This document shows, piece after piece, positions 18,665 through 64,000 of a stretch of 64,000 nucleotides of DNA. Position 1 is the first letter of the stretch. Every line of letters starts with the position of its first letter. The position numbers and the translations under genes are program-made. Below the pieces are notes generated by a model. That model did no database searches and had not been told where the DNA came from. It saw nothing but the letters and a program-made list of their open reading frames with translations. The DNA comes from Patescibacteria group bacterium (GTDB lineage: Bacteria; Patescibacteriota; Minisyncoccia; Phycocordibacterales; PALSA-1337), in the NCBI GenBank assembly GCA_038061795.1, contig JBBTYL010000001.1, forward strand, positions 65,801-129,800, given 5' to 3'.

Positions 18665-18736
18665 GGCCCTATCGTCTATCGGCTAGGACGGAGCCTTCTC
18701 AAGGCTCAAAGCAGGGTTCGACTCCCTGTAGGGTCA
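18665..18736 (+). tRNA. tRNA-Glu (anticodon CUC)
   Basis: Cloverleaf folded by hand. Acceptor GGCCCTA/TAGGGTC (one G-U). D arm GTCT..GGAC with a GG loop. Anticodon stem GAGCC/GGCTC, loop TTCTCAA. T arm CAGGG-TTCGACT-CCCTG. Discriminator A. CCA is not encoded. Confidence 0.9.
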
Positions 18737-44857: not shown

Positions 44858-45463
44858 TCAGGTTGGCGCTTTTTGAAATGGAACATGAATTACCGATTGA
44901 TTTGTGACTCGGAGCTCGTCACATTCATTGAGGTGTGGAAAGAAGGCTTCTTTCGGCTCTGGGAATCCTGCGATTGCCCAAGCGATGAAACAATTCCAGA
45001 CTCCATGGCCGAAGACGAAGACCTCGCCGGACGTAATGTGGTGTCTATTGATTGCAACCTGCATTTCATTCTTTATTCTTTGCCCGTATGCCTTATAGAG
45101 TGCAAGTGCTTCTGGGTCTTGCAGGTATGCTTCCGTATCGAACTGGTAACGGCAAGCGAAGGCCCACATTCTGCCGAAGAATTCCTTGTCACTTGGCCAG
45201 AATTCTCTGAGGGGTACGATGGGAATCGATGCCATTTCAGTTCCATTACAAGCCAGATGCGCAGTAACGATTGCACGAGGGGATTCCGAATGAAGGATAA
45301 TGGCTGGCTTGTAATGGAGTCTTTTTAAACGGAGATTGAGGGAGTATCCTTGCAGGATCCCGTTTCCGCTTACCAGCCGGCGAAAATCATACTCAGGATC
45401 ATCCTGGAGTTCAGGCTTTTTCGGGGCATGTATGTGCCGCCAAAGACTGTAGGTTAGTGACAT
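44858..45463 (-). CDS. Histidine-phosphatase superfamily (PGAM/SixA-like) protein
   Basis: 201 aa. N-terminal RH motif (LWRHIHA), LHSESPRAIVTA (S-x-x-x-R-A-x-x-T-A) and a distal His (VFGHGVW). More G+C-rich than the array genes. Confidence 0.65.
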   Translation of the reverse strand: MSLTYSLWRHIHAPKKPELQDDPEYDFRRLVSGNGILQGYSLNLRLKRLHYKPAIILHSESPRAIVTAHLACNGTEMASIPIVPLREFWPSDKEFFGRMWAFACRYQFDTEAYLQDPEALALYKAYGQRIKNEMQVAINRHHITSGEVFVFGHGVWNCFIAWAIAGFPEPKEAFFPHLNECDELRVTNQSVIHVPFQKAPT

Positions 45464-51467: not shown

Positions 51468-51944
51468 TTACAGATGTGGAGGGCGGTCTGCGGGATGTAC
51501 AGGCGGCGGGAAGTAACGCGCGACGACGCGATACATGGAACCCATAATCGCCATCATGGTTTCCTCATAGTCCTGGGCGAAATGCACAGGCCACGGATTG
51601 CTGATCCGCGCGTTGCAGATCTTGCTGAGGGGAACACCCATGCTCATCACCTCGCCGGCGAGGGTATCGGTCGCACAGACGATGAGATCGTAATTGGCGA
51701 AATCACCTTGTACCGTTACCCGCCGCCGATTGTGGCAGGAAATGTCCAGCCCGATCAGTTTCGCGGCTGCAACACCGAATTCGGCTGCCGGGCCGCCTTT
51801 CGCAGCACTTTCGCCGACGCCGGCGCTTTCGACAATGACTTGGTGCCCTGCATTTTCGAGGAGCATACCGAGGACGGCGGCCATAACTGGTGACCGATCA
51901 CTGTTTCCGATGCAAACGCAAAGGACTTTCTGGATTTTTTTCAT
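51468..51944 (-). CDS. Low-molecular-weight phosphotyrosine phosphatase / ArsC-fold protein
   Basis: 158 aa. N-terminal P-loop VLCVCIGNSDRSP (C-x5-R-S). Strikingly G+C-rich relative to the flanks. Confidence 0.75.
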   Translation of the reverse strand: MKKIQKVLCVCIGNSDRSPVMAAVLGMLLENAGHQVIVESAGVGESAAKGGPAAEFGVAAAKLIGLDISCHNRRRVTVQGDFANYDLIVCATDTLAGEVMSMGVPLSKICNARISNPWPVHFAQDYEETMMAIMGSMYRVVARYFPPPVHPADRPPHL

Positions 51945-52098: not shown

Positions 52099-52719
52099 TC
52101 AATATAAATGTACTTTCGTCGAGACGACGGAATCGTCTTCGAAGACAAACTCAATCGCTTGGCAGTACTCGACATGAGTACGAAGCGTAGTGCCCGTCGC
52201 ACACCATTCTGCGAGTGGGATGAGCGGAATGTGACTAATCGCGGCCGCGTTTTGCTTGTTCGGAAGCTGCGTCGCGATTGTCTTCACTGCTTGAAACGTA
52301 CGAAGGGCTTGGGTTCTTATGAGGTCTGGCATGATTTTGAGGAACCCTGGAGCGTCCAGCAACGGTGGCTTGGCTGGATCAGCCTGCGCCAACCGCCACC
52401 GTTCATATCCCGCCTCCCATTCTCCGATCCTGCTCGGGCCAAGCATGAGGTTATCGCTCATGGGGGCAAGGTCTGGACTTGATTTTGTTGTAAGTTCCCA
52501 AAGGATCTCACATGTCTGCACTGCTCGTGTAAGTGCCGAATGCCAGTAGCGGTGGAAAACGATGCCTTCCTTGGCGAAGTAGTCCGCTGCAACCTGTATT
52601 CTTTGGCTTGAGCCGGGCTTAAGTGGCGCCTTAGGTTGCCAGATGCCCGCACCCGGGCTTTCATCTTTTTCCTGTTCAGCGTGTCGAATGAGGAATACCG
52701 ATCTCTTCATACTTTTCAC
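52099..52719 (-). CDS. Histidine-phosphatase superfamily (PGAM/SixA-like) protein
   Basis: 206 aa. VFLIRHAEQ (RHxE catalytic motif), HSALTRAVQT, and a distal His (AISHIPLI). A TTGACA-N17-TATGAT promoter lies at 52769-52797 on the minus strand. Confidence 0.7.
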   Translation of the reverse strand: MKSMKRSVFLIRHAEQEKDESPGAGIWQPKAPLKPGSSQRIQVAADYFAKEGIVFHRYWHSALTRAVQTCEILWELTTKSSPDLAPMSDNLMLGPSRIGEWEAGYERWRLAQADPAKPPLLDAPGFLKIMPDLIRTQALRTFQAVKTIATQLPNKQNAAAISHIPLIPLAEWCATGTTLRTHVEYCQAIEFVFEDDSVVSTKVHLY

Positions 52720-52850: not shown

Positions 52851-53951
52851 ATGATTTACCCAGACTTGAGGCCGCAGAATTATCAGAGGGCTTTTTTCTT
52901 TAAAAAGTTGGGCTATTTGCTTAATGATGGTTTGGTTCTTCCGCACTATAAAAAGAGAGATTTCATCGCGCTTTACTCACATGAGGCACTTGGCACATAT
53001 ATTGGAAATTCTGCAGCTGAGTGGGCTGGTCAAAACGGAAAGGATATATTCTCTAGTGAAAGGAATTTTAAAGAATTCGAAGCAGGTTTCAGAGTAACTA
53101 CCGATGAAGCTGAGAATTATATTTCCAAAGCTCAAAAGCTTACAACTGTTACATTCAACGATTTTGTAGATCTGCAATCTATTGTATGCAAGCTCTACTA
53201 TTATTTTGAAAAAACTGAATTCTTTTTTACCGATGCAAGTTATAAAGGCGAGATGTCTGAGATATTAAAGAAAAACCTACTTGTTCTCGGAGATGATTTA
53301 AAAATGAGAAGTCGACCAATTCTAGTCGAACTTATGACTTCTGTTCTCTATCATTTCGTTAGTTTAAGCTCAGTATGGTTCGGAGTAGACGAAGAAGATT
53401 TAAAGTTCTACAGCTTTGACGAAATACGAGCATTGTTTGAGCTGGAACAAAGAGTTTCTCCTGAGACGATTAAGGATAGGCAAGAATCATTTGTTCTGTA
53501 TTGTGAGGATGGAAAAATAATCTCCATTGAAGGTAAAGATAAGCGAGAAGTTCTTGAGAGATTCGAGGAAGAGGATCATTCCAATAAAAAAGAATTTAAG
53601 GGGACGGTTGCTAACAAGGGTAAGGTTACAGCTCGAGTTAGGGTTGTTTTGCCTGAATTAAACATTCCGTATCAAGAATTCGTTAAAAAACTTTATTCTA
53701 TGGAAATGAATCAGGGAGATATTCTTGTCACAGAAACAACATCACCTGATTTCGTTCCTCTTATGAAAAAAGCCGGAGGGATTATTGCTAATCAAGGAGG
53801 GCTCAATTCTCACGCAGCAATCATGTCCCGTGAGCTCGGTATTCCGTGTCTTGTTGCGACTTATCATGCGACCGATATCCTAAAGACAGGGGATATGATT
53901 GAGCTGGATGCAGAAAAGGGGATTGTCACAATTCTAAAAAATAAGCTATAA
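52851..53951 (+). CDS. Swivel-domain paralog S11 (short class, S9-S11 subfamily)
   Basis: 366 aa. Central FEKTEFFFTDASY motif. C-terminus: GDILVTETTSPDFVPLMKKAGGIIANQGGLNSHAAIMSRELGIPCLVATYHATDILKTGDMIELDAEKGIVTILKNKL. Confidence 0.85.
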   Translation: MIYPDLRPQNYQRAFFFKKLGYLLNDGLVLPHYKKRDFIALYSHEALGTYIGNSAAEWAGQNGKDIFSSERNFKEFEAGFRVTTDEAENYISKAQKLTTVTFNDFVDLQSIVCKLYYYFEKTEFFFTDASYKGEMSEILKKNLLVLGDDLKMRSRPILVELMTSVLYHFVSLSSVWFGVDEEDLKFYSFDEIRALFELEQRVSPETIKDRQESFVLYCEDGKIISIEGKDKREVLERFEEEDHSNKKEFKGTVANKGKVTARVRVVLPELNIPYQEFVKKLYSMEMNQGDILVTETTSPDFVPLMKKAGGIIANQGGLNSHAAIMSRELGIPCLVATYHATDILKTGDMIELDAEKGIVTILKNKL

Positions 53952-53984
53952 TTGTGTCAAAATGAAACAATTAGCATTGCAAAT

Positions 53985-55037
53985 ATGACACAATTAACTA
54001 ACAGACAAAAGAAAATCGTCGACTTCATTGCATCAAGGGATGCAGTTCAGAATCAAGATGTGGTCATCTTCCTGGAGGTGGATACTGATTCTGCATCGAG
54101 AGAGACCGTTGTCAGAGAACTCGCCGTGCTTGTCGATGCAGGAATAATCGAAAAAAGCGGGAAAGGACGCGCAGTGTCGTACAGGATCAGGGGAGTTCAT
54201 CCGCTGCTCAAAGCATTGGACCATGAAGAATATATTTCCAAGGAGCCGGATGTGAGATCTAAAGATGCGATCCTATTCAATCAGGAGATATTCCATAAAT
54301 TAGACGGAATATTCAGCGAAGCTGAGATTTTTGAGCTAAATAGGAAAAATGATGCATATCGGGGACGTGAGAAAAATCTAACTCCAGCCATTCTAAGAAA
54401 AGAGCTTGAGAGGATTACGATAGAATTGTCCTGGAAATCATCAAAGATCGAAGGCAATACGTATTCTTTGATAGACACTGAAATTCTTATCAAAGATAAC
54501 AAGAAAGCGTATGGACATGATGCAGATGAGGCAACGATGATTCTCAATCACAAGAAAGCCATTGATTACATATTTGACAACAGGGAAAAATTCAAGATTC
54601 TTTCCCTGAGGAATGTCGAAGATGTGCACCGAATGCTTGTGGAGGGGCTGGAAGTGAATCATGGCATACGATCAAAAGCCGTAGGCATAACCGGCACTCA
54701 ATATCGTCCGCTTGATAATCAACATCAAGTCAAGGAGGCCCTTGAAAATACAATCATTGAAATAAATAGGATGAAAGATCCCTGGAGCAAAGCCCTCATT
54801 GCTCTTATCATGATCGCCTATATCCAGCCATTTGAGGATGGAAACAAAAGGACCTCGCGCATCGTTGCAAACGCATGTCTGATCGCTCATGATGTTTGTC
54901 CGCTTTCGCTTCGCAGCATTGATGAAACCGAATACAAGAAAGCGATTACTGTATTCTACGAGCTTCAGAATGCGGCCTATATGAAAAAGCTATTCTTGGA
55001 GCAGTTTGATTTTGCAATCAAGAATTACTTTCTTTAA
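53985..55037 (+). CDS. wHTH-Fic/Doc-fold protein with atypical active-site motif (QPFEDGNKRTSR)
   Basis: The ORF is open from TTG 53952, immediately after the S11 stop; the first ATG is at 53985. N-terminal winged-helix pattern (..VVRELAVLVDAGIIEKSGKGRAVSYRI). Inhibitory-helix-like SSKIEGN (S-x-x-x-E-G). Fic core IQPFEDGNKRTSRIVAN, where canonical Fic is HxFx(D/E)GNGRxxR and Doc has NKR. The stop lies 3 nt before the S12 ATG. Confidence 0.75.
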   Translation: MTQLTNRQKKIVDFIASRDAVQNQDVVIFLEVDTDSASRETVVRELAVLVDAGIIEKSGKGRAVSYRIRGVHPLLKALDHEEYISKEPDVRSKDAILFNQEIFHKLDGIFSEAEIFELNRKNDAYRGREKNLTPAILRKELERITIELSWKSSKIEGNTYSLIDTEILIKDNKKAYGHDADEATMILNHKKAIDYIFDNREKFKILSLRNVEDVHRMLVEGLEVNHGIRSKAVGITGTQYRPLDNQHQVKEALENTIIEINRMKDPWSKALIALIMIAYIQPFEDGNKRTSRIVANACLIAHDVCPLSLRSIDETEYKKAITVFYELQNAAYMKKLFLEQFDFAIKNYFL

Positions 55038-55040
55038 GCC

Positions 55041-56450
55041 ATGTCGTATCAACTCGTTAAAGATTTTAAAGAAGTACTTGGTGCACATGAATGCTTCACC
55101 ATACGCGGGGGAATGTCACCCCTTTTGCTCTCATTTCCATGGCAGGGAGAAAATCTTCCCCTTGTGCTTTTTACCATCAGCAAAGGCAGGGACTGCTTCA
55201 TGGCCCTTGATGAGGAGAACTATTTTGAAATTGCCAGATTGAGATTTGAGAAGTACCACAAGGGAGAGCTTTCACTAAAATGGCTTCAAGATGAATATTA
55301 TTCTTTTGCTGCACAGATGCAGGATTTTTATGATAAGTCGATTGCACAAGATTTTTCAAAAGCTTTAGATGAAGAGTTAAGTCAAACACTGAAAGGTTTG
55401 CTCGATCAGTTTCTTGTTTCGCTCCAGAACACTATTTATTTAGAATGTATTGATTATGACAAGATATTGAATGTCATTGGTACAGATAAGAAAGAAGAAC
55501 TAGATGTTATCTGGGAAACTGCTACGCACCCCACATTCATATCTTTTGAAGGACGTCGATTGAAGCTCCTTATCGATCTTGTTTCGAGCAGACAAAATAA
55601 CCTTATCCGTAAGGCGAAGTTCATTTTCACTGATTATGTCTGGACGAAAAGCGATGCAGAAATTGAAACAGCGCTAGCTGATATTCGAAAGAATATGAAA
55701 GAGAAGAGCGGGGAATATGACAATCTTGAAAAAAGCGTTGCTGCCAAAAAAGCAGAATATGATACATGGAAGGTTAGTCTTAATAAGGATATGCAGGAAG
55801 TCGTCGAGTACATGCAGATGGTTATGCTTTTCCGTGATTTAAGAAAGGATGTTATCGCACAGATGCAAGCTGTAATGGTAGAAGTTGCTGTCGAAATGCT
55901 CAAGCGAATTGAGGTTGACGCAAAGCATGCGACAAACATACTTATCTTTGAGTGTGTTAAAGGTATCGAGTATCTTAAAAGTATTAAGGATGAACTTGTA
56001 AGGCGTGAGAGTGGTTTCATTTCTGTTGTGTACACAGATTTCAGTTACAAGATTGAATTATGTGATTTCGACAAAGCTCTCGATGAATTTGAGAAAACAG
56101 TAGTTAAGCATGTTCATACAGATACGATAAAAGGATTTGTTGCGAACAAAGGCAAACTAACAGGAACAGTTCGCGTCGTACTCGATCCACATGGCTACAA
56201 AGGATTTAATAAAGGGGATATTCTAGTGACATCCATGACCCGTCCAGAATTTGTGCCTCTGATGAAGCAGGCTGGAGCAGTTGTGACCAATGAAGGAGGC
56301 ATTACCTGCCATGCCGCCATCGTTTCTCGTGAGCTTGGGATCCCTTGTGTTATCGGTACCAAGATTGCTACAAGGGTGCTAAAGGATGGAGATAGGGTTG
56401 AGGTTGATGCAGACAATGGAGTGGTTACAATATTAAAAAAAAATGAATAG
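55041..56450 (+). CDS. Swivel-domain paralog S12
   Basis: 469 aa. C-terminus: GKLTGTVRVV..GDILVTSMTRPEFVPLMKQAGAVVTNEGGITCHAAIVSRELGIPCVIGTKIATRVLKDGDRVEVDADNGVVTILKKNE. Confidence 0.85.
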   Translation: MSYQLVKDFKEVLGAHECFTIRGGMSPLLLSFPWQGENLPLVLFTISKGRDCFMALDEENYFEIARLRFEKYHKGELSLKWLQDEYYSFAAQMQDFYDKSIAQDFSKALDEELSQTLKGLLDQFLVSLQNTIYLECIDYDKILNVIGTDKKEELDVIWETATHPTFISFEGRRLKLLIDLVSSRQNNLIRKAKFIFTDYVWTKSDAEIETALADIRKNMKEKSGEYDNLEKSVAAKKAEYDTWKVSLNKDMQEVVEYMQMVMLFRDLRKDVIAQMQAVMVEVAVEMLKRIEVDAKHATNILIFECVKGIEYLKSIKDELVRRESGFISVVYTDFSYKIELCDFDKALDEFEKTVVKHVHTDTIKGFVANKGKLTGTVRVVLDPHGYKGFNKGDILVTSMTRPEFVPLMKQAGAVVTNEGGITCHAAIVSRELGIPCVIGTKIATRVLKDGDRVEVDADNGVVTILKKNE

Positions 56451-56451
56451 C

Positions 56452-56485
56452 AAAAAACGCCGGCAATGTTACAGTCGGCGTTGCG
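56452..56485. terminator. Hairpin terminator (strong on minus, weak on plus) at the end of array block C
   Basis: AACGCCG-GCAATGTTACAGT-CGGCGTT. A6 lies upstream, so the minus-strand reading ends in TTTTTTG. Confidence 0.7.
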
Positions 56486-56504
56486 TGAGTAAGGTGATGC
56501 TTTG

Positions 56505-56873
56505 CTACTGTCCCACCACCACTTCCTTTGTGATGTTGGTTGAGTGCCCCTTGGGGAAAAGCCTGCTGATTCCCGTACTGATGTTGTAAAGCGTAATGCC
56601 CTCATCGTCATCAATTGTGGCTACGCCTCGATAACTATTGTGAATGATTGTTCCAGTTTTGCTGGCAATTTTCACCCAACGATTATCCCGCCATTCTGCA
56701 ACCCAATCCAGTTTAATTTTCAGACCAGATGCCGTCAATTCAATCGCTCCAATCTGTGCACGATGCCAATGCTGAACGCCACGCAATTGTTCGTCGTTGA
56801 ATTGTCCACTTGCAAAATCTGGGTTCAGGACAATTTCTTCCCAAGCTATATGTCTTACAGTTGCACTTCTCAT
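56505..56873 (-). CDS. Hypothetical protein
   Basis: 122-aa ORF, more G+C-rich than the flanks, with the terminator above downstream. No motif recognised. Confidence 0.5.
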   Translation of the reverse strand: MRSATVRHIAWEEIVLNPDFASGQFNDEQLRGVQHWHRAQIGAIELTASGLKIKLDWVAEWRDNRWVKIASKTGTIIHNSYRGVATIDDDEGITLYNISTGISRLFPKGHSTNITKEVVVGQ

Positions 56874-57050
56874 AATTTTTAACAGGTTTTGGTTTGAGGT
56901 TCAAGCCACTATGGCTGTGCTCGAGTTGAGCGATAAAGCGAATCACTGTAAATACTATGTACTATTAATACATAGACGTCAATAGTATATAAAGCACTGT
57001 CTTATTTATGGTTTACGTTTTCTCATTTTTATAGTACTATATTGACCATT

Positions 57051-58076
57051 ATGGAACTTGTTCGGAATTTCAAGAAACTGTCAAAAAGTGACGCCCACCT
57101 TGCAGGAGGTAAGGGTGCATCCCTTGGGGAAATGACCCAAGCCGGTATTCCGGTGCCCCCTGGCTTCGTCGTACTTTCCGAGTCTTTTGAGCAATTTCTC
57201 AAAGAAACTGAACTCCATGCCGAAATCGATGCAGTGCTCCATACAGTCGATCATAAGGAGATTCACCTTGTCGAGGCGGCTTCCGAGAAAATTCGTGCCC
57301 TTATCCTTTCGCGTGAGATGCCGAAGGATATCGCGGATGCTATCAACAAGTCATTTAAGGATCTTGATGCAAAGCATGTGGCTGTCCGTTCGTCTGCAAC
57401 AGCCGAAGATGGCATGGACCATGCGTGGGCAGGACAGCTTGAATCATATTTGAATACTACTGAAGATCAGGTGCTTACTAAAGTGAAGCTTTGCTGGTCA
57501 TCCCTTTTTACCCCACGAGCGATCTTTTACCGATTCGAGAAAATGCTACACAGCACGAAGATTTCAGTTGCGGTTGTTGTGCAGAAGATGGTCGAATCAG
57601 AAGTTTCTGGAATCGCTTTTTCAGTGCATCCTGTAACAGAAGACTACAATCAGCTCATTATTGAAGCCGGCTTCGGTCTCGGTGAAGCCATTGTCTCTGG
57701 TTCAGTAACTCCTGATAGCTATGTAGTTGAGAAGAATCCGCGCAATATCCTTGATATAAATGTGTCGACGCAGGAAAGAGGTCTCTATAGGTCTGAAAAG
57801 CACTCTGCAGAGCATGGAAATAACGAATGGATAGATATTCCTGAGCCGAAGGCCTCTTCTCAGGTTCTTACTGGTAAACAGATCCTTGAGCTTTCAGAAA
57901 TCATCCTAGGCATCGAGAAGCACTATGGCTTCCCATGCGATATAGAATGGGCATTCGAGAAAGGGAAGTTCTACATTGTCCAAAGCAGGCCGATTACGAC
58001 GCTTGCTCGAAAGGAGGTAAAGAATGAAGTATCTGGTTTCGCTACTCCCGAATTAAAAGATTTCAAGACGGAATAA
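57051..58076 (+). CDS. Stand-alone PPDK_N / PEP-synthase-type ATP-grasp (nucleotide-binding) domain protein
   Basis: 341 aa from ATG 57051 (TTG 57042 also possible). Motifs: GGKGASLGEM, VAVRSSATAEDG, CWSSLFTPRAIFYR, VAVVVQKMVESEVSGIAFSVHP, GFGLGEAIVSGSVTPD, CDIEWAFEKGKFYIVQSRPITT. The ORF ends at TAA 58074-58076, in the same frame as S13. Confidence 0.85.
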   Translation: MELVRNFKKLSKSDAHLAGGKGASLGEMTQAGIPVPPGFVVLSESFEQFLKETELHAEIDAVLHTVDHKEIHLVEAASEKIRALILSREMPKDIADAINKSFKDLDAKHVAVRSSATAEDGMDHAWAGQLESYLNTTEDQVLTKVKLCWSSLFTPRAIFYRFEKMLHSTKISVAVVVQKMVESEVSGIAFSVHPVTEDYNQLIIEAGFGLGEAIVSGSVTPDSYVVEKNPRNILDINVSTQERGLYRSEKHSAEHGNNEWIDIPEPKASSQVLTGKQILELSEIILGIEKHYGFPCDIEWAFEKGKFYIVQSRPITTLARKEVKNEVSGFATPELKDFKTE

Positions 58077-58139
58077 TGGGATTACTACGGTTTCTGGAAG
58101 CAAGATCTTTTTCCAAGTTATTTTTGGAGCGCGTGCTGG

Positions 58140-59447
58140 GTGCCGGAACTTGCCGTCAAAATGGGGATCAAGACCGATGGGGTTTGGGCGATAACGATGA
58201 ATGGTGGGCAGTATTTGGTAAAAGGTTCAGAAAGAAAAAAAATCAAAGAACATATTTCAAAGAAAATCCTAAGCAAAGATACTGCTTTTTTTGAAAATAT
58301 GATCAAAGTCGCCGATGAAACTTATTTATTGGCAAAAAAGAGCGGAGAAGCATTGCAGGATTTAAAGCCGACCGCTGAAAATTTTCAGAAATTCCTTGAT
58401 GCTGCGAAAAGAATAAATTTCCTCTGGCTGCTCGGAGCTAGCCATTTCCATGAAGCCGCAGAGAAGGAGCTCCAGGATGCTGTCGTCACCGAATCTTTTC
58501 CAGCAGAAAAGGTCATGGATATAATTCCTCCAATCGTAAGCCCATTGTTTGAACGGCATAAGGAATTGGTTGAGCTTAAAAAGGAAGCAGGTTCCAAATC
58601 CTTGGATGAAATAAAGAAAGACAAAAAACTCTATGCTAAATTCCAAAATCAAGTAGAAAAATATCCATGGATTGAAATCTTCAATTTCATTGGCGAGCCT
58701 CTTACGGTTGAAAGGCTCTATGAGCAAGTCACTCATATAGAAACTCATGATGCAAAGCATGCCAAAATTTCCATTTCCCCAGAACTGGAATGGCGCGCTG
58801 ACTGCATGAATAAGTGCGGTTACGTAAAGCAAGCCGGTGCCGAATATTTTTCCATTTTTTCTGAACGGGCACTTCCATTCCTTGCTAATGTAGCTAAGGA
58901 ACTTGGTTTAACCTACAGGGAATTTATGATGTTTAGCGTTACTGAGGTGAAGCAGGCCTTGAAAGGTGAAATAACTCATGATGAGCTGAAATCCAAAATT
59001 TCCACTCGCAAAAACGGTTATAGTTATGCCTTTATTGCTCTTGAAGGTGAAAAGGTTGTATTTACAGAGAATCCAGGCGACATGGCCATTCTCAAAAAAA
59101 TGATCCCAATAACCGATAAAGATACCCGGGAGCTCAAAGGCGCAGTCGGTAATCCTGGAAAATACTTGGGTCCAGCACGGGTCATCATGAATACTGACGA
59201 TTTTCATAAAATGCAGACGGGTGATGTGCTTGTGACTACCATGACCACGCCAGATTTCGTTATTTTGATGCAAAAGGCCGGCGCTATCGTTACCGACATC
59301 GGCGGCTTGCTCTGCCACGCTGCAATCATTTCTCGTGAAATAAACAAGCCCTGCGTGATCGGCACTCGATTTGCAACGCAGGTTTTCAAAGATGGAGATA
59401 CTCTCGAGGTGGATGCAGAAAAGGGGATAGTAAGGATTATCAAATAG
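58140..59447 (+). CDS. Swivel-domain paralog S13 (N-terminus uncertain; frame open from 58077)
   Basis: 435 aa from GTG 58140 (ATG at 58161). The frame is open back to the ATP-grasp stop and encodes WDYYGFWKQDLFPSYFWSACWVPEL, which resembles other paralog N-termini. C-terminus: GDVLVTTMTTPDFVILMQKAGAIVTDIGGLLCHAAIISREINKPCVIGTRFATQVFKDGDTLEVDAEKGIVRIIK. Confidence 0.8.
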   Translation: MPELAVKMGIKTDGVWAITMNGGQYLVKGSERKKIKEHISKKILSKDTAFFENMIKVADETYLLAKKSGEALQDLKPTAENFQKFLDAAKRINFLWLLGASHFHEAAEKELQDAVVTESFPAEKVMDIIPPIVSPLFERHKELVELKKEAGSKSLDEIKKDKKLYAKFQNQVEKYPWIEIFNFIGEPLTVERLYEQVTHIETHDAKHAKISISPELEWRADCMNKCGYVKQAGAEYFSIFSERALPFLANVAKELGLTYREFMMFSVTEVKQALKGEITHDELKSKISTRKNGYSYAFIALEGEKVVFTENPGDMAILKKMIPITDKDTRELKGAVGNPGKYLGPARVIMNTDDFHKMQTGDVLVTTMTTPDFVILMQKAGAIVTDIGGLLCHAAIISREINKPCVIGTRFATQVFKDGDTLEVDAEKGIVRIIK

Positions 59448-63425: not shown

Positions 63426-64000
63426 ATGCCAAGTAACGACAAGTGGCTTATAACAAGGACACGCTATATTCCCTCGACATACCCATTACTTTCATTTTTT
63501 GACTGGAATTTCAGTGAATATTTTGGCATGAGCGATACAGGACATGTTATCAATGTATGGGACAAGGGCAATTATTTCGCTATTTGGGAAAAGGAAAAGT
63601 ATGCAGAATTTGGCGAACATGCGCTTGCAATGCTTCAGAAGGTTGACGACCTCAATGCTTTGAGAAAGAAAAGTACTGCTTCGGGACAAAAGCTTGTTGA
63701 TTTTTGTAAGGATTACGCCCTTTCATCTGAACCAGTTACGCATCAAAACTATCTAAATTTTATTGAGAATCTTTCGATTAAGTACTCACACTTAATGAGA
63801 GACAACATGTGTTACTGGCTGTTTGCGCCAAATATAATTGAAAAAAGAATACAAGCATTGCTCAGTAAGTACCCTGAAGATCAAAAGAAAGACATCATCC
63901 AGGCTCATTCCCACCCAGCAGAACTGTCATACAGCCAAAGGATTGAGAAGGAATTTTCAAAGCTTGTTGCAAGCGCTAGGGAGGAAGGACTTGAAAGCGT
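63426..64000 (+). CDS. Probable paralog S17, 5' part only (runs off the window)
   Basis: Not in the ORF track because it has no stop. ATG 63426 follows the same AAATAACATG junction. My translation, MPSNDKWLITRTRYIPSTYPLLSFFDWNFSEYFGMSDTGHVINVWDKGNYFAIWEKEKY..., stays open to nt 64000 and resembles the S14/S16 N-termini. The swivel domain is not visible in this window. Confidence 0.6.
   Translation, partial: MPSNDKWLITRTRYIPSTYPLLSFFDWNFSEYFGMSDTGHVINVWDKGNYFAIWEKEKYAEFGEHALAMLQKVDDLNALRKKSTASGQKLVDFCKDYALSSEPVTHQNYLNFIENLSIKYSHLMRDNMCYWLFAPNIIEKRIQALLSKYPEDQKKDIIQAHSHPAELSYSQRIEKEFSKLVASAREEGLES

Follow-up and report, generated by a model that had tools for sequence, protein, structure and literature searches.

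A probable recent nonsense mutation divides the only full-length dikinase gene in a Patescibacteria array of swivel-domain paralogues

The stretch of DNA considered here is 64,000 nucleotides long (positions 65,801 to 129,800 of contig JBBTYL010000001.1, assembly GCA_038061795.1; hereafter called the window) and comes from a bacterium of the Patescibacteria group. On its forward strand, from 36768 to 64000 and continuing approximately 1.1 kb past the window end, it carries a tandem array of 17 paralogous genes that code for a divergent N-terminal or central region joined to a conserved swivel domain, together with a single ATP-grasp gene. We judge it probable that a genuine and evolutionarily recent nonsense mutation, most simply GAA to TAA at 58074, has cut the one full-length gene of this array, which codes for a dikinase resembling rifampin phosphotransferase (RPH), into two open reading frames (ORFs) in these Patescibacteria of Hainich groundwater. 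A member of a known enzyme family has been interrupted at this locus, and its split state imperfectly mimics a known two-component arrangement; the locus presents no new mechanism.

The upstream piece is an ATP-grasp (PPDK_N) ORF of 341 amino acids on the forward strand (57051 to 58076; MEK7463621.1), which contains the N-terminal domain and the entire inter-domain linker of an RPH-like dikinase. Read mechanically, this ORF opens with the TTG at 57042, and homology places the real start at ATG 57051, where homologues open with MEL or MEF. It closes with a premature TAA on the same strand (58074 to 58076), in a column where all 25 aligned full-length homologues carry a sense residue. Pfam matches 57042 to 58073 to the PPDK_N ATP-grasp family (PF01326; E 2.8e-98, profile positions 3 to 321 of 328). 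There follows on the forward strand a start-less segment of 21 conserved codons (58077 to 58139; WDYYGFWKQDLFPSYFWSACW) that corresponds to the opening of the central, substrate-binding domain, namely its first beta-strand and its first helix. The downstream piece, which we call S13, is annotated as a protein of 435 amino acids beginning at GTG 58140 (58140 to 59447, forward strand; MEK7463622.1), and it contains the remaining central domain and the C-terminal His swivel domain. Here Pfam finds the PEP-utilizers swivel (PF00391; E 1.4e-22) at residues 380 to 450 of the 456-residue remainder, and the catalytic His is kept (the invariant His of GGLLCHAAI). The domain order of grasp, central and swivel is that of RPH-like dikinases, but an in-frame TAA parts the grasp from the rest.

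A preliminary description of this DNA, made from its sequence alone, had noted that the ATP-grasp ORF and S13 share a reading frame, that TAA 58074 to 58076 is the only stop between them, and that the first in-frame ATG, GTG or TTG codons beyond it are GTG 58140 and then ATG 58161. All of this was reproduced, and its coordinates proved exact. The frame from 58077 reads WDYYGFWKQDLFPSYFWSACWVPELAVKMG and stays open for 456 codons, until the stop at 59445 to 59447. Another in-frame ATG lies at 58197 and is the start called on a Logan contig. No near-cognate start (CTG, ATT, ATC or ATA) is present among the 21 codons between 58077 and GTG 58140, and in the split state this segment would have no obvious translation.

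One gene in relatives

A read-through query was prepared by deleting the TAA and translating 57051 to 59444, and the resulting product of 797 amino acids was searched against 5.8 billion proteins. Dozens of single proteins of 795 to 807 amino acids match it at 56-72% identity and 100% coverage, and the few full-length matches that are named belong to lineages of Patescibacteria (Candidate Phyla Radiation, or CPR). Further matches share the ATP-grasp portion alone, at no more than 87% identity, and have larger central regions.

When the read-through product is aligned with 25 full-length homologues (26 sequences), the alignment is collinear across the junction without a gap. The TAA column is occupied by Glu in the closest homologue (P0001) and by D, E, G, N or a few other residues in the rest. 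This correspondence extends to the codons, since the window reads GAA TAA TGG GAT TAC TAC where the closest orthologue, at locus L001, reads GAG GAG TGG GAT TAT TAT. Given this codon match and the absence of any indel, a single G-to-T change in a Glu codon (likely GAA to TAA) suffices to account for the stop. The alignment thereby bears out one of two readings offered in the preliminary description, namely that a single ATP-grasp, variable and swivel protein of approximately 800 amino acids has been broken by a nonsense codon.

The peptide encoded by 58077 to 58139 includes a conserved motif (consensus GLWKNDLFATCFWQDCW) with invariant Gly, Lys and Trp columns, and a junction profile made from the full-length homologues matches 58077 to 58208 with E 1e-21. 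Judged by these comparisons, the segment is conserved coding sequence, as had been proposed. However, the resemblance to the N-termini of two other paralogues (S14 and S17) that had been cited for this proposal did not hold up (E 1.6 and 3.5), and MAFFT aligned nothing in those N-termini beyond a loose aromatic '...W' motif. Neighbouring genes share a frame approximately one time in three by chance. The present arrangement is far beyond chance, because the two pieces align collinearly and at full length with single proteins and because the junction profile gives so low an E-value.

Comparison of orthologous loci had been suggested as a check. We assembled 80 related loci from GTDB genomes of CPR bacteria and DPANN archaea, several metagenome-assembled genomes (MAGs) from Hainich among them, and searched these loci with profiles for the grasp, the junction and the swivel. 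The gene is fused in most of these loci; in 11 of the 80, a free ATP-grasp gene (317-348 amino acids) directly precedes swivel-only genes. At L001, the closest relative, an intact gene of 801 amino acids is followed by seven or more swivel-only paralogues in a row. The searched protein collections contain no fused allele that is more than 72% identical to the read-through product, and the 90%-identity clusters of either piece include no fused member. JGI metagenome contigs were also scanned for the junction, the first base of the stop being set to N, and gave zero matches, which is uninformative because the source is an ENA/NCBI dataset.

Condition of the pieces and position of the cut

Neither piece shows signs of decay. 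We examined columns with a conservation of at least 90% among the other sequences, at which intact homologues deviate 0 to 19 times. The window deviates at 0 of 158 such columns in the ATP-grasp half and at 3 of 82 in the S13 half, values that fall within the range of the intact homologues. Lineage-specific changes, assigned by the majority of the outgroup, number 7 in the window against 15 in its intact sister for the ATP-grasp half, and 18 against 26 for the S13 half. Among the characteristics of a decaying pseudogene, a premature stop relative to the orthologues is present, and further lesions and accelerated downstream change are absent. Because decay is evident in neither half, either the lesion arose recently or selection still acts on both pieces.

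What the cut removes is indicated by an AlphaFold2 model of the read-through protein (mean predicted local distance difference test score, or pLDDT, of 86.6). In this model a disordered linker after QSRPITTL (residues 320-326) is followed by a confident PELKDF segment, and the central domain opens with a strand (344-348) and two helices (353-360 and 365-371), of which the strand and first helix have pLDDT values of about 86-94. A product restarted at GTG 58140 (Val364) or ATG 58161 (Met371) loses 21 to 28 residues, including the invariant G, K and W columns, and on this model would be deprived of the strand and of one or two helices. GTG 58140 is the conserved Val codon of CWVPE and lies in a GC-rich context unlike that of real starts in the window. 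Shine-Dalgarno motifs are nearly absent upstream of the approximately 38 forward-strand ORFs, whose starts are preceded by A/T-rich sequence, and a search for such motifs at GTG 58140 or ATG 58161 has no power because this genome barely uses them.

The position of the cut also differs from that in natural two-gene versions of the enzyme. In all 11 of these, the ATP-grasp protein ends 0 to 9 residues after ITTL (3 or fewer in most), and an ATG belonging to the second gene itself either overlaps the stop (ATGA) or lies within approximately 8 nucleotides of it. In the window, by contrast, the cut falls 23 residues after ITTL, the next start is 64 to 85 nucleotides away, and the linker motif is left on the ATP-grasp piece. 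Natural two-gene versions such as those of L015 (H43-bin083), L009 (Paceibacterota), L056 (H41-bin076) and L061 belong to the same CPR/DPANN family and come partly from the same aquifer as the window, and L015 and L009 have the same junction motif. At L015, which represents the same subfamily as the window gene, the second protein begins MSKYNFVSKELKDFKPEDYHYFGLWKNDLF and so retains the linker motif (ELKDFKPEDY...) that in the window stands on the ATP-grasp piece. Given its different position, the linker kept on the ATP-grasp piece and the lack of a start, the cut in the window looks like raw damage rather than a finished fission.

The paralogue array and a possible trans-acting ATP-grasp

A profile scan of the window finds only one ATP-grasp domain among the 17 swivel paralogues. 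The swivel domains of the array share a mean identity of 53%, compared with 20% for the rest of the proteins, and their His is kept in every case. Many of the genes abut or overlap the preceding stop, with junctions such as ATGA, TAAATG, TAACATG, TAAAATG and TAGTCTATG; none is literally TAATG, the form that had earlier been regarded as the coupling style of the array. The end of the array can be seen in a closely related assembly (L002, 16376-18119), where there is a swivel-only fragment of 110 amino acids. Comparable arrays are found at many loci of CPR and DPANN genomes (for example L001, L009, L032, L053, L057 and L070).

Another proposal was that the junction preserves a record of how the paralogues without an ATP-grasp relate to a full-length ancestor. 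The junction does show that a gene can be split at this boundary. The other array paralogues, however, have their own ATGs, and no linker remnant is detectable in them with the junction profile (paralogue w39739 gives a marginal match, E 0.03 in a search space of 23 sequences). The proposal is thus loosely supported, and natural two-gene versions are cut elsewhere.

With these observations in mind, we suggest the following view of the split gene. The ATP-grasp product of 341 amino acids would still be made and would still be useful as a free subunit that acts in trans to charge the histidine of the swivel domain in nearby paralogues lacking an ATP-grasp, much as HpeI, CreI and PpsB do in the two-component enzymes described below. 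The ATP-grasp domain would already have had to act in trans on its array neighbours before the split. If it does act in this way, losing the covalent link to S13 would cost the cell little, and the 341-residue fragment would stay under selection. The S13 remainder would have lost its normal start and would be made, if at all, by restart at GTG 58140 or ATG 58161, and its substrate module is probably weakened, silent or dead. A trans-acting ATP-grasp is plausible because 11 of the 80 loci have a free grasp, because a single grasp stands among 17 swivel paralogues whose swivel domains are conserved together with their His, and because HpeHI, CreHI and PpsAB provide precedents.

Several points weigh against this account as a whole. 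The undecayed state of S13 would fit continued function as well as it fits recency. The conserved PELKDF linker motif has been left on the ATP-grasp piece and could impair that piece too. The assemblies that carry the stop, considered below, were all obtained at a single site, and some of their reads may be shared. Finally, phosphorylation in trans of swivel-only paralogues in the CPR/DPANN family is something that we infer by analogy.

Alternative explanations

We consider it rather unlikely, though deserving of attention, that the stop represents gene fission at its first step, such that a free ATP-grasp charger now serves 17 swivel modules and S13 is restarted and active without its first strand and helix. 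If this is true, the locus would be a natural intermediate between one-component (RPH-type) and two-component (HpeHI/PpsAB-type) dikinases, and a nonsense mutation followed by restart would be a route to the ATP-grasp-less paralogues of CPR and DPANN arrays.

Unlikely as well, in our judgement, is an established and functional two-gene dikinase, in which S13 is a normal protein translated from GTG 58140 or ATG 58161, while the stop marks a stable fission instead of a fresh lesion. NCBI annotates each piece as an ordinary gene, S13 exhibits neither decay nor rate acceleration, two-gene versions are common in relatives, and paralogues of 349 to 366 amino acids show that the family tolerates smaller N-terminal regions. 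However, none of the 11 natural splits is cut as far beyond ITTL as the window gene or leaves its second gene without a nearby ATG of its own, the restart product would be without the invariant G, K and W and the confidently modelled strand and helix, and GTG 58140 appears to be merely the conserved Val codon of CWVPE.

Programmed readthrough or recoding of the stop, by which one gene would yield mostly free ATP-grasp and some full-length enzyme, had been listed in the preliminary description as a variant of the broken-gene reading, and we regard it as very improbable. The perfect continuity of frame and the undecayed downstream half are what such a mechanism would leave, and an array dependent on a shared ATP-grasp would be well served by both products together. 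However, TAA closes 28 of the 39 listed ORFs of the window, and UAA followed by U is the commonest termination context. The local RNA around the stop folds unremarkably (z = +1.1; 174 of 200 shuffled versions reach an equal or better fold). No suppressor tRNA or other RNA gene was found in the window beyond a tRNA-Glu(CTC) at 18665, and the stop is not conserved, being present in this column in 0 of 25 orthologues. An alternative genetic code was considered and dropped, since TAA terminates those same 28 ORFs.

A sequencing or assembly artefact, in which the gene is intact and 58074 is really a G, had likewise been mentioned beforehand as a base-call error. A single base separates the window from an intact gene, the source MAG is of modest coverage (cov_6 in its contig names), and neither half has decayed. 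Nevertheless, the exact truncated protein of 341 amino acids is found on at least six public contigs (from ENA ERZ1292633, ENA ERZ1292628, Logan ERR3858136 and the NCBI MAG). The ENA assemblies come from well H41 in the Hainich groundwater (replicate 0.2-µm filters), and the Logan assembly was made by a different assembler. Three related assemblies (L002, L003 and L004; two from ENA and one from Logan) are 99.84-99.95% identical to the window, with 4 to 9 differences that are almost all synonymous and clustered, and all three share its TAATGGG junction. Because the same junction recurs in assemblies that bear single-nucleotide polymorphisms (SNPs) elsewhere, a random base-call or assembly error is unlikely, and the substitution is not a typical Illumina homopolymer error. 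We accordingly hold the artefact to be highly doubtful.

Contradicted by the evidence, and scarcely credible, is the other reading of the preliminary description, that S13 is a separate gene which begins at ATG 58076 to 58078 in a TAATG overlap and has lost its frame through one G too many in the GGG at 58078 to 58080; the ATG does overlap the stop, its upstream context is A-rich like that of real starts in the window, and deletion of one G gives MDYYGFWK, but the closest orthologue has the same TGG GAT, which makes the G run ancestral and leaves no extra G to remove. That orthologue has GAG TGG at the site, hence no ATG there; the W is common to the closest homologues P0001 and P0003, GGG is present in all assemblies, and the alignment needs no indel. 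Several events would have to restore exact collinearity, where a single nonsense substitution explains the same data. Only close relatives that carry TAATGGAT together with a separate S13 would revive the frameshift. The ATG in question does open an incidental ORF of 72 codons on the forward strand (58076 to 58294), which lies in the +2 frame, not that of S13, and ends at TGA 58292-58294.

Neighbouring features and other interrupted members

Just upstream of the ATP-grasp gene, in a gap of approximately 600 bp, the reverse strand contains an ORF of 122 amino acids (56505-56873) that has no Pfam match; each of the three related assemblies includes it among its called genes. A scan of 56400-58400 for promoters and terminators revealed no enrichment compared with shuffled sequences.

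Four genes interrupt the array, three on the reverse strand (44858-45463, 51468-51944 and 52099-52719) and one on the forward strand (53952-55037). Their products are two members of the histidine-phosphatase superfamily (one below the Pfam cut-off), one protein resembling low-molecular-weight phosphotyrosine phosphatases, and one Fic-domain protein. A His_Phos_1 gene also adjoins the orthologous array at L001. The presence of phosphatases and a Fic protein among kinase-like genes suggests a module for both phosphorylation and dephosphorylation.

The differences between the window and the three related assemblies lie in patches (53360-53468, 55388-55403, 57335-57341 and 63566-63584), each consisting of 2 to 6 mostly synonymous SNPs inside paralogue genes. 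These patches could reflect strain recombination or gene conversion between paralogues.

Interrupted members of the family are not unique to the window, because two other loci also carry in-frame stops. In a MAG of Candidatus Azambacteria, a family member of approximately 798 amino acids has a single in-frame TGA at codon 507 (L038, 11504-11506), within the central domain and with no nearby restart codon. In Patescibacteria H43-bin098_1, a free ATP-grasp gene has an in-frame TGA (L030, 10763-10765) at an invariant Trp column (GNE-TGA-KNI versus GNNEW). The latter is either a TGG-to-TGA nonsense mutation or a hint that TGA serves as a sense codon in that genome.

Significance

A stop codon by itself is an ordinary kind of mutation, and we regard the array as the more unusual object. 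The searched literature offered no description of swivel-only paralogue arrays in CPR bacteria or DPANN archaea, and the sole related report found, a resistome survey (PMC8651080), gives counts of rph-like genes in CPR.

For annotation, the consequence is immediate: MEK7463621.1 and MEK7463622.1 are displayed as two ordinary genes and are really the halves of one interrupted gene, and the model of S13 with 435 amino acids starts at a conserved internal valine codon. The recent nonsense mutation that we favour would also supply a dated example of a break at a boundary where the enzyme family exists in both fused and two-gene form, one that could be used to test whether the ATP-grasp works in trans. 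The larger question is how a whole array of ATP-grasp-less swivel proteins becomes phosphorylated in such tiny genomes, and the locus provides a natural experiment for addressing it.

Comparison with known dikinases

The closest structural counterpart of the uninterrupted protein is RPH-Lm (PDB 5FBS and 5HV1), which has the same order of N-terminal ATP-grasp, central substrate-binding domain and C-terminal phospho-His swivel. A Foldseek search with the read-through model gives RPH 5hv1 as the best full-length match (E 1e-37 over approximately 910 columns, global TM-score 0.36), in agreement with the RPH-like domain order that had been proposed earlier. The two proteins share 22% identity, and their sequence match (2e-103) is in the grasp and swivel domains; the central domain has no sequence match among PDB structures, where only grasp and swivel find counterparts. 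RPH differs in that no array of ATP-grasp-less paralogues has been described for it, whereas the window gene is located in one with 17 and is interrupted by a stop.

Phosphoenolpyruvate (PEP) synthase and PPDK have homologous ATP-grasp and swivel domains (8a8e, 9e-134; PPDK, ~1e-20), but their swivel is in the middle of the protein and is followed by a C-terminal PEP/pyruvate-binding TIM-barrel. No Pfam match to such a barrel was obtained in the ORFs of the window, for which Pfam gives PPDK_N and PEP-utilizers only.

The split state itself can be compared with HpeHI of Rhodococcus, CreHI of Corynebacterium and PpsAB, the phenylphosphate synthase of Thauera and Aromatoleum. These are characterised two-component RPH homologues, each composed of an ATP-grasp subunit of approximately 40 kDa and a substrate-binding and swivel subunit of approximately 70 kDa, both of which are required (PMC12167813). 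Their ATP-grasp is a separate polypeptide, as in the layout of the split gene, and Foldseek matches HpeI (9goj) to the grasp domain of the window protein at 33% identity, with a TM-score of 0.74 on the target. However, their two genes are cleanly separate and each is provided with a start, whereas the second piece in the window has none at the cut. Their separation falls before the linker, and that of the window after it. Finally, their ATP-grasp subunit has one partner, whereas the single ATP-grasp of the window faces 17 candidates.

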